Part shown: positions 12,694 through 57,195 of the stretch, piece by piece
Position numbering within the stretch: position 1 is the first letter of the stretch
How the letters are laid out: each line of letters starts with the position of its first letter
Sequence record: MN882542
DNA from: Escherichia phage JN01
Reading direction: 5' to 3' (one strand)
DNA length: 64,000 nt
Position numbers and translations under genes: made by a program
The notes under the pieces: generated by a model
What the model was told of the DNA's origin: nothing
Seen by the model: only the letters and a program-made list of their open reading frames with translations
The model's database searches: none

Positions 12694-13041
12694 ATGAAAA
12701 CTTGTATTAGGTGCAAACTTAGCAAGGATGAAAGTGATTTCTACATGAAAGATGGTAGGAGAACTCATTCATACTGTAAAAAGTGTGTTAATGAGCAAAC
12801 CATAGAAAGACAAAGAGCACTTAAACTTTCAGCTATTGAGTACAAAGGTGGAGTTTGTCATGATTGTGGTAAAAGGTATCATCCAGCAGTGTATGACTTC
12901 CATCATTTGAATCCTTCAGAGAAAGATTTTAACATTGGTCATAGAAAAAGTCTTAAGTTCTCTCAGGAGCTAAAGGACGAACTTGACAAATGTGTTTTGC
13001 TATGTTCAAATTGCCATAGGGTAAGACATGCAAAGTATTAG
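12694..13041 (+). CDS. HNH homing endonuclease
   Basis: Zinc-finger CxxC pairs and HNH motif (HHLNP...N...CSNCHRVRH); start taken at ATG 12694, directly after the tRNA-like element. Confidence 0.8.
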   Translation: MKTCIRCKLSKDESDFYMKDGRRTHSYCKKCVNEQTIERQRALKLSAIEYKGGVCHDCGKRYHPAVYDFHHLNPSEKDFNIGHRKSLKFSQELKDELDKCVLLCSNCHRVRHAKY

Positions 13042-13178
13042 TTAGCAGATTGCTTAGACGACCTTATCGGGTCTCCGTGTAAGGAGGTGGTCTGTATCTC
13101 ATGTTTTCCAGAACATGTAAATAATCTGAGAAGGGGCTTTACAGTGTTGTGAGAATACGGTAAGCTTCGAATTATAGT

Positions 13179-13261
13179 GTGGGACGATGTTAAGACTCTA
13201 AGGCATGAGCAACGGCCTCCAAAACCGTTTCAAAGTGGTTCAACTCCTCCGTCCCATGCCA
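13179..13261 (+). tRNA. tRNA, possibly Trp (anticodon CCA), with enlarged D region
   Basis: Acceptor GTGGGAC/GTCCCAT, CCA encoded, T-loop GGTTCAACTCC; anticodon loop CTCCAAA; D-arm irregular. Confidence 0.5.
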
Positions 13262-13274
13262 AAGTCTTATTAGG

Positions 13275-13362
13275 GGTAGGTAGCGGCTAATGGTAGCCAA
13301 ACTGTCTTGAAAACAGTTGCCACTGTAGAGATACGGTGAGGGTTCGACTCCTTTACTTACCG
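13275..13362 (+). tRNA. tRNA-Ser (anticodon TGA), long variable arm
   Basis: 88 nt; anticodon arm ACTGT-CTTGAAA-ACAGT; T-loop GGTTCGACTCC; CCA not encoded. Confidence 0.7.
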
Positions 13363-13519
13363 CCTAATAAGATTTAAAGCCAAGCTTCATTCGGATGTTG
13401 CTTTGGTATCCCTCGTGTATTGTCGTACACACTGATAAAGCACCTAGTAGGTGTCACGGAGAAGAGATAATATCAAGCTCTCCAAAGGTTCTAGTCACCG
13501 GATTAAACAAGACTATGCA

Positions 13520-13540
13520 AAGACCTATTTAGGTCTTTTT
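13520..13540 (+). terminator. rho-independent terminator-like hairpin
   Basis: AAGACCT-ATTT-AGGTCTT followed by TTT. Confidence 0.45.
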
Positions 13541-13619
13541 AGAGGGCTTCTAAGGTTATTACAGCTTGTTGTGGAACCTTGTTGCTTAGGTTCTTAGAAG
13601 TTCTCTAAAAAGATTTAAT

Positions 13620-13696
13620 GCACCTATAGCCCAACTGGTAGAGGCAGCAGACTTAGAATCTGCTCAGTGTGAGTTCGAATCTCTCTAGGTGTACCA
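13620..13696 (+). tRNA. tRNA with TAG anticodon (Leu-decoding) but short variable arm
   Basis: Perfect anticodon stem GCAGA/TCTGC with loop CTTAGAA; 5 nt variable loop; A73; CCA encoded. Confidence 0.65.
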
Positions 13697-13703
13697 AATT
13701 AAT

Positions 13704-13779
13704 GCAGGTGTAGCAAAATGGTTATGCGGCTGACTCTTAATCAGTAAGACGATGGGTTCAATTCCCTCCACCTGTACCA
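13704..13779 (+). tRNA. tRNA-Lys (anticodon CTT)
   Basis: Paralog of the tRNA at 11996; anticodon loop CTCTTAA; CCA encoded. Confidence 0.65.
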
Positions 13780-54529: not shown

Positions 54530-54675
54530 AACACTCTAAAGCATTTGAAAAAGTTTTTGGGGATTCCTTAAAAGCCACTGCTGGCAAACCAGCAAAATAC
54601 TATGAAGAGAAGCGTGTAAGAACTGGAAAAACTGCACGTAAAGCAGCTTCTAAAGATAAGCACAACTTCCAGTAA
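54526..54675 (+). CDS. small basic protein (49 aa)
   Basis: ATG with GGAGA Shine-Dalgarno 5 nt upstream; lysine-rich. Confidence 0.35.
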   Translation: MKHSKAFEKVFGDSLKATAGKPAKYYEEKRVRTGKTARKAASKDKHNFQ

Positions 54676-54682
54676 TTAATGT

Positions 54683-54711
54683 TTGACAATAGAGTATCAA
54701 CAAATTAGAAT
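54683..54711 (+). promoter_or_regulatory. sigma70-type promoter (TTGACA, 17 nt, TAGAAT)
   Basis: Consensus -35 and 5 of 6 -10 at ideal spacing, upstream of the SSB-like gene. Confidence 0.55.
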
Positions 54712-54747
54712 TGGTACTCTTCATAAATTGAGATAGAGGTTTAAATA

Positions 54748-55605
54748 ATGTCTAAAGTTGTTAAAATGAAAGCTCCGGTAGAGAAGTACAACGGTACTGA
54801 ACGTCAAACTCTGCGTTACCTTCTGAAAGATGTTTGGTTTTATTACCTGAACACTTCACCACGTCCGGGAAAAGGTAAATCCATTGATAAGAAATTCCCA
54901 GGCAAAGACTGTAACTACAGTGTTTCAATTCTGGCAGAAGATGGTAACAAGCTGTTTAAAGAGTTCACTAAGTCTAAGAAAAACCCAGAAGGTTGGGATA
55001 AAGTTACTACTGAAGCAGTTGATGCAGATGACTTTGAAGAGAAGTTTGGTTGCAAACCACCATTTGAAGCAGACACTTACTACATCTTGAAAGTAAGTCG
55101 TGCAGCAGCTTATAAGGATGGTGCTGTGTGGACAGCTAAACAGTCATTCCCTGTAATGCTGATTGAAGAAGTAAATGGTAAGCGTGTAGCTGTTAAGCAG
55201 CCGATGAAGAAAATCAAAGCTCAAGCATCTGATAAGCATGAAGATGACAAGAACTATGATGTAATTCATCCAGATATCGCAGTTGGTAACGGTTCTTTTG
55301 GTAGTGTGATTCTTTCTACTCACTTCTACACTTTTGAGAACAATGTTCTGACAAAACCTATTCAGGAACAGTTTATCATTGATACTCTTGTACCTTACAC
55401 TGGTGGTAACGGTGCTAATGGCGAACCTGAACTGGATGAAGATGAACTGGCTATGCTTGGTCTTGATGGTGTTGAAGATAACGGTGAAATCACTGAAGAA
55501 GATGCAACAGACCACAAACCTTCGAATGCTTCTGATGATGGTGATGATGAAGACTTGCCAGACCCAGATGACGAAGAAGATGAAGACTTCGATACAGAAG
55601 ACTAA
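54748..55605 (+). CDS. single-stranded DNA-binding protein (putative) with acidic C-terminal tail
   Basis: C-terminus DDGDDEDLPDPDDEEDEDFDTED; sits between primase-helicase and exonuclease. Confidence 0.55.
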   Translation: MSKVVKMKAPVEKYNGTERQTLRYLLKDVWFYYLNTSPRPGKGKSIDKKFPGKDCNYSVSILAEDGNKLFKEFTKSKKNPEGWDKVTTEAVDADDFEEKFGCKPPFEADTYYILKVSRAAAYKDGAVWTAKQSFPVMLIEEVNGKRVAVKQPMKKIKAQASDKHEDDKNYDVIHPDIAVGNGSFGSVILSTHFYTFENNVLTKPIQEQFIIDTLVPYTGGNGANGEPELDEDELAMLGLDGVEDNGEITEEDATDHKPSNASDDGDDEDLPDPDDEEDEDFDTED

Positions 55606-55623
55606 TCTCTAAAAGTTACTTTA

Positions 55624-55650
55624 AAGCCCTGTACTTAGTATGGGGCTTTT
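55624..55650 (+). terminator. weak terminator-like hairpin
   Basis: AGCCC-N13-GGGGCT followed by TTTTTC. Confidence 0.35.
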
Positions 55651-55667
55651 TCATATGGAGAGTCACA

Positions 55668-56708
55668 ATGGAGAAGTATACACTAACAAAACTTCCCGAT
55701 TCAGTTACACATGTCTTTATTGATTCTGATAGTATTGCCTATAAAGGTGCTTGTGTAGTTGAGAAAGCAAAATACAAATATGTCAATAAACTCACAGCAG
55801 AAGAATCTGAACCATTTGATAATGCAAAAGATGCTGCAAGATGGTTAGCAGACCAGAGAATCCTTGTAGAAGAGCTTGGCCTAGCATTTGATGAAGATGA
55901 ATGGGAAAGACAGACTTGGAAAGAAGCTAAGAGTGAAAAAGAAGCTATAATGGCGACTCAGCAGGTTCTTCAGGAATGGCTTAAGGTTGTTGGTAAAGAA
56001 AGAACTTGGGTAGGTTACTTAACAGAGAAGGGTGTACATAAACATAAAGACATTAAAGGTCTTGAGCACCAATATCAAGGTAACCGTAAAGAGGCTATCA
56101 CACCAACACACTTAGTTGCTTGTCGTGAATATCTTTTATCCAGACCAGAGTTCAAGCTCTTAAAGGGAGGCTTCGAAGCCGATTCCATCGTAATTGCTAA
56201 AGCTGAAAAGATGGGTAAGAAGGCTGCTCTTATGAGTATTGACAAAGACCTTCGACAAGCTGAAGGGACTTATTGTATTGATATGACTTATGAAAAGTCA
56301 CCACTAATTTTTATTGCTGATAATAATGTTGGTGATATCTGGGATTGTCCTATCAAATCAAAACCAAAAGCTGCAAAAACAGTTGGTGTAGGTTTTAAAT
56401 TCTTGTGTTATCAGGCTGTTGCTGGAGATAATGCAGACAACTACTTCGGCCTCAAAGGTGCTGGCAAAGTAGCTGTGATGAAGGCTTTAGATGGTAAAGA
56501 GACCTACAAAGAGTGTCTCGATGCTATCTATGAACTCTATGCTAAAAAAGAGTCTTACACCTATGTATCATGGGATGGACAGACTGTTACAAAAACGCCA
56601 TTAGAGTTAATGGAACAGCATTTCTGGATAGCATATCAAGAGAGAAATCCAAAAGATAATTTCTCTTTTAAGAAATATAATTGGGAGCCGTGTATGAATG
56701 AAGATTAA
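55668..56708 (+). CDS. 5-3 exonuclease (T7 gp6-like)
   Basis: Blocks SIDKDL and GDNADNYFGLKGAG parallel T7 gp6 SCDKDF and GDITDGYSGIAGWG. Confidence 0.65.
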   Translation: MEKYTLTKLPDSVTHVFIDSDSIAYKGACVVEKAKYKYVNKLTAEESEPFDNAKDAARWLADQRILVEELGLAFDEDEWERQTWKEAKSEKEAIMATQQVLQEWLKVVGKERTWVGYLTEKGVHKHKDIKGLEHQYQGNRKEAITPTHLVACREYLLSRPEFKLLKGGFEADSIVIAKAEKMGKKAALMSIDKDLRQAEGTYCIDMTYEKSPLIFIADNNVGDIWDCPIKSKPKAAKTVGVGFKFLCYQAVAGDNADNYFGLKGAGKVAVMKALDGKETYKECLDAIYELYAKKESYTYVSWDGQTVTKTPLELMEQHFWIAYQERNPKDNFSFKKYNWEPCMNED

Positions 56709-57195
56709 AGGATTTGGCAATTGTCCTACCTATGGTCATTGGGTATCTTTATGCGGGGAAGTTGACCCCGCTAAACATTTTGGTTTTGTCTATTTAGTAT
56801 ACTGTAAGAAAACCGGACAATATTATATTGGAAAGAAACAGCTTAATAGCGTGACCAAAAGAAAAGTTGCTGGTAAGACTCGGAAGAAGGTAGTCACTAA
56901 GGAGAGTGATTGGATGACTTATGAGACTTCTTCTGAGTATATTAAAAAAGATATCGAGAGCTTTGGAAAAGAATTTTTTGACTTTTACATTATCCAAACC
57001 TACTACACAAAAGGTGGTCTAGTTTATGGTGAAGCAAACCTCCAACATAAATTCGATGTAATGACAAAAAGGATTGACTCTAAGCTCAGACTCTTCTACA
57101 ATGCCAATATTGCAGCAATTAAGTTTATTACTAAAGAAACTTATGAAGATGCTGAAAAAAGAATCCATAAGGTAATGAAAGCAAACTGTGCTTGA
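56698..57195 (+). CDS. GIY-YIG family endonuclease (putative homing endonuclease)
   Basis: GIY-YIG-like motif FGFVYLVYCKKTGQYYIGKK; free-standing between replication genes. Confidence 0.6.
   Translation: MKIKGFGNCPTYGHWVSLCGEVDPAKHFGFVYLVYCKKTGQYYIGKKQLNSVTKRKVAGKTRKKVVTKESDWMTYETSSEYIKKDIESFGKEFFDFYIIQTYYTKGGLVYGEANLQHKFDVMTKRIDSKLRLFYNANIAAIKFITKETYEDAEKRIHKVMKANCA

Follow-up and report, generated by a model that had tools for sequence, protein, structure and literature searches.

Endonuclease II of phage T4 (DenA) is a stand-alone GIY-YIG nuclease which starts the breakdown of host DNA, and in phage T7 the gene 3 endonuclease I and the FEN-family gene 6 exonuclease act on host and branched DNA. 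The fold of T7 gp3 differs from GIY-YIG, and T7 genes 3 and 6 are not adjacent. T4 SegB, encoded in the T4 tRNA cluster, recognises a conserved motif in the T arm of tRNAs and promotes the inheritance of the tRNA region in which its gene lies (PMC2330249), and SegB homologs are statistically associated with tRNA genes genome-wide (PMC13096335). The genome paper of phage Felix O1 reports six HNH endonuclease genes and describes the thyA, nrdA, nrdB and polymerase genes as being without insertions (PMC3185647). Here we analyse two nuclease genes of Escherichia phage JN01 (sequence record MN882542) within a stretch of 64,000 nucleotides, hereafter the window: an HNH gene in the tRNA array and a GIY-YIG gene in the replication block. 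An earlier note on this DNA had regarded both as free-standing, mobile homing endonuclease genes inserted between conserved genes. Our results make it likely that the two are of different kinds, one a mobile HNH homing cassette and the other a fixed, vertically inherited GIY-YIG nuclease that consists of the catalytic domain only.

The window comes from a Felixounavirus (Ounavirinae), a Felix O1-like myovirus: in megablast searches two of its stretches match Felix O1-like phages at 97-99%, and Escherichia phage vB_EcoM_D4 (D4), among the top matches, shows 95-97% identity to the whole window, with an annotation that transfers nearly gene for gene. The order is the tRNA array (25 tRNAs by ARAGORN), then the structural genes, then the replication and nucleotide-metabolism block. 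Both open reading frames (ORFs) are present as first described, at 12694-13041 and 56698-57195, and both encode nuclease folds: hidden Markov model searches returned PHROG 2255 (HNH) for the first and PF19835 (GIY-YIG) for the second, and these assignments are joined by conserved residues and a structural model for the HNH protein and by an hhalign match to T4 SegE for the GIY-YIG protein.

A GIY-YIG nuclease gene conserved in the replication module

The GIY-YIG gene lies directly behind an exonuclease gene, and the locus comprises the following features:

55668..56708, + strand: FEN/T7 gp6-like 5'-3' exonuclease gene (PHROG 107 'exonuclease', E=3e-63; weak Pfam 5_3_exonuc matches)
56684..56685, + strand: insertion site, empty here, 13 nt upstream of the GIY-YIG start codon and still within the 3' end of the exonuclease gene
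56698..57195, + strand: gene for a SegE-type GIY-YIG protein of 165 aa, catalytic domain only (Pfam PF19835, E=2e-27)

The GIY-YIG ORF scores 96 bits against PF19835 (SegE_GIY-YIG; cut-off 25 bits), and hhalign aligns the profile of its family to the T4 SegE catalytic domain (SegE residues 2-92) with a probability of 95%. The protein has the GIY and YIG motifs together with the conserved Glu and Asn, and 83 diverse family members show little or no variation at Y32, Y43, G45, K47, E112 and N135, a pattern of conservation consistent with an active enzyme. The family is large, with 2,265 representatives at 50% identity. Its domain occupies residues 21-138 of the 165, no further Pfam domain is found, and neither a NUMOD nor a helix-turn-helix DNA-binding tail is present. 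Long relatives of 220-390 aa carry NUMOD3-like repeats and helix-turn-helix tails, and the domain-only architecture is also that of 45 of the 46 nearest relatives outside the Felixounavirus/Mooglevirus-like group. A basic beta-hairpin insertion of ~19 residues (about 50-69), absent from SegE, follows the YIG motif and could supply non-specific DNA contacts. PDB sequence searches with the protein alone and with the 83-sequence profile returned no true relative, and hhalign of the profile gave no catalytic-domain match to I-TevI.

The gene was found in 294 phage records when searched for by itself, and the exonuclease gene was detected in 277; these searches revealed no relative that lacks the GIY-YIG gene. 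The carriers are Felixounavirus, Citrobacter and Shigella relatives, the Erwinia Kolesnikvirus group and unassigned Hafnia phage(s). Wherever the gene order was checked it runs primase/helicase, a ~285-aa protein, 5'-3' exonuclease, GIY-YIG, a small ORF, MazG and NrdA, and the synteny in Kolesnikvirus and a Hafnia phage is the same as in the window. Of five neighbouring proteins compared between genera, the GIY-YIG protein has changed least, with 57-61% aa identity to these two phages, against 53-59% for the exonuclease and 37-41% for MazG. Within the genus the ratio of nonsynonymous to synonymous substitution rates (dN/dS) is 0.014-0.13, around 0.03.

The number of records, the constant position after the exonuclease gene and the strong conservation therefore argue that the gene is not a sporadic mobile insert. 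The reading of it as a mobile element placed between conserved genes is not supported: it is itself a conserved gene, found at the same position in every inspected locus, and the mobility proposed for it sits poorly with strong purifying selection and with the lack of the DNA-binding domain that site-specific Seg enzymes have. Across hundreds of phage records the gene is labelled 'NAD synthetase', 'HNH endonuclease' or 'GIY-YIG homing endonuclease': it is a known but widely mis-annotated core gene, and it should be taken to indicate neither mobility nor an insertion hotspot.

The pairing of the GIY-YIG gene with the exonuclease gene

Relatives have the gene at 55668..56708 annotated as exodeoxyribonuclease. 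It shares its last 11 nt with the start of the GIY-YIG ORF, and a GGAG lies 10 nt upstream of the GIY-YIG ATG, an arrangement which suggests that the two genes are translationally coupled. Overlap of the stop and start codons is usual among the records. A divergent 90-kb contig of a metagenomic phage, with a different module order, has the pair too, and in a large group of environmental contigs the gene upstream of GIY-YIG encodes a Pfam 5'-3' exonuclease (PF02739 and PF01367) and overlaps the GIY-YIG start; compared with the window, the exonucleases of these contigs are ~21% identical and the GIY-YIG proteins ~43% identical. Pairwise divergences of the two proteins correlate, with a Pearson coefficient of 0.94 and a Spearman coefficient of 0.86 over 120 non-independent pairs.

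Several points weigh against the view that the two form an ancient partnership of active enzymes. The correlation of divergences is dominated by a few deep clades, and adjacency to the exonuclease is not universal: other GIY-YIG subgroups adjoin other genes, namely those for DNA polymerase A, a nucleoside deoxyribosyltransferase-like protein or a protein weakly similar to PD-(D/E)XK nucleases. The structural model of the GIY-YIG protein is of moderate confidence, with a predicted local distance difference test score (pLDDT) of 72 and a poorly modelled segment around N135, and the canonical Arg of I-TevI is not evident. A non-specific nuclease would, moreover, oblige an unmodified phage to have some way of sparing its own DNA, and Felix O1-like phages are not known to have a DNA modification that would let an EndoII-like enzyme tell self from host.

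Two candidate relationships around the locus were rejected. The gene upstream of GIY-YIG in metagenomic contig L013 is not the same exonuclease, as it has just a weak PD-(D/E)XK-like match. Nor is the small ORF downstream of GIY-YIG a DNA-binding partner that has split off, for its product changes from clade to clade: in Ounavirinae it is a coiled coil, in environmental phages a small membrane protein unrelated to the former.

The insertion hotspot that does exist here is the junction between the exonuclease and GIY-YIG genes, which is empty in the window. At the equivalent of 56684/56685, Felix O1 (ORF106) and vB_SflM_004 carry an endonuclease gene of ~500 bp with HNH_3 and AP2 domains, metagenomic contig L015 has an HNH_3-AP2 gene between the upstream gene and the GIY-YIG gene, and several other records list an HNH gene adjoining the GIY-YIG gene. 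The suggestion that the nuclease genes mark insertion hotspots is not supported for the GIY-YIG gene, beside which the true hotspot lies.

Within Felixounavirus the exonuclease gene falls into two divergent allele groups, of 83 records at 95-99% and 139 records at 80-90% identity; the adjacent GIY-YIG gene, unlike it, does not. In VpaE1 and Felix O1, both of which carry the HNH_3-AP2 insert, the 3' end of the exonuclease gene has diverged, and this divergence could reflect gene conversion tied to the homing endonuclease.

From fold, family, architecture, distribution, synteny and selection we infer an enzymatic activity for the GIY-YIG protein and a link to its neighbour. The protein is a SegE-type catalytic domain that has lost, or never had, a sequence-specific DNA-binding tail; its gene has become fixed in the replication module and is inherited vertically along with that of the flap (5'-3') exonuclease. 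It is most likely an active endonuclease of low sequence specificity, or a structure-specific one, whose nicks or cuts would then be processed by the adjacent exonuclease. The pair may serve recombination-dependent replication and debranching, or host-DNA breakdown for nucleotide salvage. The gene is probably a domesticated housekeeping endonuclease, and among candidates for the missing nuclease of replication or recombination it is a cheap one.

We weighed this view of a domesticated housekeeping enzyme against two others. In one, the GIY-YIG protein serves counter-defence or host takeover, as a nuclease directed at a host immune nucleic acid such as retron multicopy single-stranded DNA or at host DNA, and its adjacency to the exonuclease is just historical. 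We regard this as unlikely: the protein has no sequence relationship to T4 EndoII (hhalign probability 0.2%), and its gene, one of the most conserved of the module, lacks the variability usual for counter-defence genes. A lead from the PhageMaP preprint, in which the GIY-YIG protein 'gp77' of phage Bas63 counters retron Ec67, proved to concern another gene. That protein, bas63_0077, is not the ortholog, has no Pfam GIY-YIG match and lies outside the window; the ortholog is bas63_0057, at 99% identity.

The second, to which we give a somewhat lower probability again, is that both genes are ordinary free-standing homing endonucleases and that the GIY-YIG gene has swept to fixation in Ounavirinae while remaining selfish and site-specific, for instance by excluding markers of rare relatives without the gene. 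In its favour, the family of the gene, SegE, has long members with the classic homing-endonuclease architecture, the gene sits in a replication module, a common home of such genes, and some records annotate it as a homing endonuclease. Against this stand the record searches, in which no gene-less relative was found, the protein without a DNA-binding domain, a conservation above that of neighbouring core genes, with a dN/dS around 0.03 across genomes that offer no site to home into, and a divergence that keeps step with that of the exonuclease even in distant phages. We therefore retain the domesticated, vertically inherited nuclease as the best description of the GIY-YIG gene.

A probably mobile HNH cassette in the tRNA array

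Around the HNH gene the following features were distinguished:

12245..12273, + strand: sigma-70 promoter-like site, near-consensus, TTGACA-17-TATAGT (11/12 matches; kept in 5/5 aligned Felixounaviruses)
12597..12678, + strand: tRNA-like gene of atypical form, with a CCA end and the anticodon loop CUUCUAA (UCU, Arg) (Rfam tRNA 31.7 bits, cut-off 29)
12681..13038, + strand: mobile cassette, made up of a 13-nt leader with a Shine-Dalgarno-like GGATGA and the HNH ORF minus its stop codon (from alignment against ECOH1 and Meda)
12694..13041, + strand: HNH endonuclease ORF, 115 aa, whose product has a CxxC...CxxC zinc ribbon at the N terminus and, behind it, an HNH domain with a CCCC zinc site

The boundaries of the cassette come from an alignment of the window, Felix O1 and VpaE1_ev78 with the HNH-less relatives ECOH1 and Meda. 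This comparison exposes a clean empty site: an exact block of 358 bp (12681-13038), its boundary ambiguous by 1 nt, is absent from ECOH1 and Meda, where the junction reads ...CGACCAAT / TAGTTAGCAG... (the stroke marks the point of insertion). The HNH stop codon, TAG, is sequence already in the empty site, and the cassette begins 2 nt past the CCA of the tRNA-like gene. It is carried by 27 of the ~265 records that match the flanks (~10%). Filled and empty states are each found on both downstream flank haplotypes, and the empty junctions are identical in two haplotypes. Felix O1 ORF44 and ORF47 and a second HNH gene of VpaE1_ev78 are paralogs at other tRNA junctions (E=1e-13 to 1e-17). The sporadic presence, the exact boundaries and the intact empty site fit a free-standing homing endonuclease gene; the mobility that had been proposed for the HNH gene is supported by this presence/absence polymorphism and by the paralogs.

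The protein matches PHROG 2255 'HNH endonuclease' with E=5.8e-40. Among 52 aligned homologs the zinc-ribbon cysteines (C4/C7/C28/C31) and the CCCC site (C55/C58/C104/C107) are invariant or nearly so, H70, H71, H108 and H112 are invariant, and N106 is nearly so. In a PDB sequence search the HNH motif aligns to McrA (E=0.0024). The AlphaFold model has a pLDDT of 94.5, and its seven top Foldseek matches in the PDB are HNH nucleases, with probabilities of up to 0.93; the matches include Gme HNH, the Cas9 HNH domain, Cap5 and T4 EndoVII. The ORF is intact, with a dN/dS of 0.05-0.15 against three orthologs. Several database records start it at the ATG at 12649, which lies inside the conserved tRNA-like gene and outside the cassette, and 12694 is for that reason the better start.

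The tRNA-like gene immediately upstream was not called by ARAGORN. Its predicted fold has acceptor, anticodon and T arms and a long variable region, without a D arm, and compensatory changes in the anticodon stem in phage Meda suggest that it is functional. The promoter-like site at 12245..12273, upstream of this gene and the cassette, probably drives their co-transcription.

As to how the cassette spreads, we infer both the activity of the HNH protein and its target. The cassette is a minimal one with its own ribosome-binding site, probably transcribed within the tRNA operon. In a mixed infection its product would cut the allele that lacks the cassette, in the tRNA-like gene's 3' end or close to it, and recombinational repair off the cassette-bearing genome would then copy the cassette in.

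Some observations fit this picture less well. Against Pfam PF01844 (HNH) the ORF reaches 16.7 bits, under the 21.4-bit cut-off, and the Foldseek E-values are weak, at least 0.12. Presence of the cassette does not follow the haplotype of the downstream flank, so that there is no clear co-conversion signal, and repeated precise deletion could also produce the pattern of presence and absence.

Association of the HNH family with tRNA genes

Homologs of the HNH protein at 30-66% identity are spread across unrelated phage groups. In seven of eight cases examined in the family the ORF starts 14-22 nt past a tRNA 3' end, Felix O1 ORF44 being the exception, and six aligned junctions each show the same succession of T arm, acceptor 3' strand, CCA, short spacer, Shine-Dalgarno sequence and ATG. 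A tRNA gene lies within 600 bp in 53 of the 79 IMG/VR loci with HNH homologs, mostly at a distance of 70 bp or less or overlapping the end of the ORF, and for 27 of these 53 the nearest is tRNA-Arg(UCU), in both orientations. The enrichment may partly reflect the commonness of that tRNA in phages. Judged from these gene neighbourhoods, the family appears to be specialised for tRNA genes and above all for tRNA-Arg(UCU); such specialisation would explain why there are several paralogs at different tRNA junctions in the genus.

Least probable among the alternatives is that the HNH gene is immobile, a tRNA-operon accessory (serving tRNA-Arg(UCU) or a tRNA-related counter-defence) that most lineages have deleted: the strong and specific tie to tRNA-Arg(UCU) genes in either orientation, the purifying selection and the absence of a visible co-conversion tract would suit it, but the indel boundaries are exact and identical across unrelated flank haplotypes, the missing block is precisely the ribosome-binding-site leader plus the ORF, sister phages hold several paralogs at different tRNA junctions, homologs are scattered over unrelated phage groups, and the whole is a classic homing-endonuclease pattern that parallels T4 SegB. 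The HNH gene looks like one of the several HNH homing-endonuclease genes that Felix O1-like phages are known to carry, an ordinary cassette that had been annotated before.

A more far-reaching proposal covers both genes, and we put it forward as tentative. The GIY-YIG protein and the flap exonuclease would form an ancient, co-inherited replication/recombination module in which a homing catalytic domain has been domesticated, maybe supplying a junction-resolving or nicking activity that is unannotated in Felix O1-like phages, and the zinc-ribbon HNH family would be a tRNA-Arg(UCU)-targeting homing lineage that moves phage tRNA genes. Only the exonuclease-GIY-YIG module and the association of the HNH family with tRNA-Arg(UCU) seem to us worth following up. 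The latter parallels recent work in which SegB reshapes phage tRNA loci to evade host defences, and HNH cassettes might likewise reshape tRNA loci in other phage groups.

Neighbouring features of the tRNA region

Between the near-consensus promoter and the tRNA-like gene lie 321 nt (12276-12596, + strand) without a credible ORF. This segment is mostly identical in five Felixounaviruses, and its 3' two-thirds wholly so; it folds much more strongly than shuffled sequence (z=-4.25, 0/100 shuffles), and its Rfam matches are weak only (tmRNA_permuted, 23.6 bits). Like the T4 species I/II RNAs, the segment may give rise to a stable non-coding RNA that belongs to the tRNA operon.

A second tRNA-like remnant, missed by both ARAGORN and Rfam, lies downstream of the HNH gene at ~13189-13262 (+ strand); its anticodon-like loop has CCA (Trp) and its T loop reads GGTTCAACTCC. 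At the equivalent place VpaE1_ev78 has a called tRNA-Trp and then another HNH gene instead. Just upstream of the array, a 471-aa gene (9294-10709, + strand) is annotated 'RNA-binding protein' in relatives and, judged by its position, appears orthologous to Bas63 gp130. According to a preprint that protein is Ro60-like and counters the Ppl defence system, and the authors suggest that some 'tRNAs' may be Y-RNA-like partners (PMC11482910), an idea that could bear on the atypical tRNA-like genes of the window.

Core genes and other endonuclease sites

The thyA, nrdA, nrdB and DNA polymerase genes are colinear with those of Felix O1 and have no extra segments; no intron or intein was found in them, just as the earlier note had concluded. 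A phmmer screen of the six-frame translation found no third HNH or GIY-YIG gene in the window (LAGLIDADG and PD-(D/E)XK classes were not screened); its queries were 15 HNH and GIY-YIG nucleases from Felix O1, VpaE1_ev78 and T4 together with two unannotated D4 ORFs.

Five of the six Felix O1 HNH genes fall in the span of the window. Only the site of ORF45 is filled here, and those of ORF44, ORF47, ORF95 and ORF106 are all four empty. Two of these sites lie in the tRNA array:

12153..12205, + strand: site after tRNA-Met, where Felix O1 has the paralogous HNH gene ORF44
13945..13948, + strand: empty site at the tRNA-Gly/tRNA-Thr junction, where Felix O1 has the paralogous HNH gene ORF47

Beside the first of them, the 5' half of tRNA-Ile differs between the window phage and Felix O1. 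A remnant of the ORF95 HNH gene was sought at 46605-47087, where just two small ORFs without a Pfam domain match were seen. Downstream of the DNA polymerase gene, the paralogous small ORFs 46392-46604 and 46856-47026 (both - strand, ~56-70 aa) each begin MTLS..., and at their place Felix O1 and Bas63 have an HNH_3-AP2 endonuclease gene.

No Pfam domain was matched by 2233-2661 or 14374-14616, two ORFs specific to the window. At 44185-44458, D4 has ~1.65 kb extra (L002, 9165-11124) that is absent from the window, and neither of the two ORFs in this segment (146 and 195 aa) has a significant Pfam match. In the relative Bas63 (L103, 16631-19517) nrdD is annotated as split by an HNH_3/NUMOD1 endonuclease gene in an intron-like manner; the start of nrdD lies past the end of the window.

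Comparison with known systems

The HNH gene is the ortholog of Felix O1 ORF45 (Felix01p088, NP_944866), with 96.7% nucleotide identity and the same insertion site and flanks; the database start of ORF45, at the equivalent of 12649, is probably over-extended into the tRNA-like gene. As free-standing endonuclease genes between phage tRNA genes, T4 SegB and F-TflI/II/IV of T5 (cited in PMC2330249) resemble it. It differs from SegB in being a zinc-ribbon HNH gene, whereas SegB is a GIY-YIG enzyme, and in that its family appears to prefer one isotype, tRNA-Arg(UCU); a preference of that kind has not been reported for SegB.

For the GIY-YIG gene, T7 gp3/gp6 and T4 EndoII would be functional analogies only. 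Its likeness to the T7 pair is that of a nuclease gene coupled by overlapping stop and start codons to a gp6-like exonuclease gene, and the partnership proposed here is read from the gene neighbourhood. T4 SegE is closer in sequence, sharing the catalytic domain family PF19835. SegE, however, has a C-terminal DNA-binding region (residues 93-205) which the window protein lacks, and whereas Seg-type homing endonucleases are sporadic, the GIY-YIG gene of the window is fixed, syntenic and vertically inherited.

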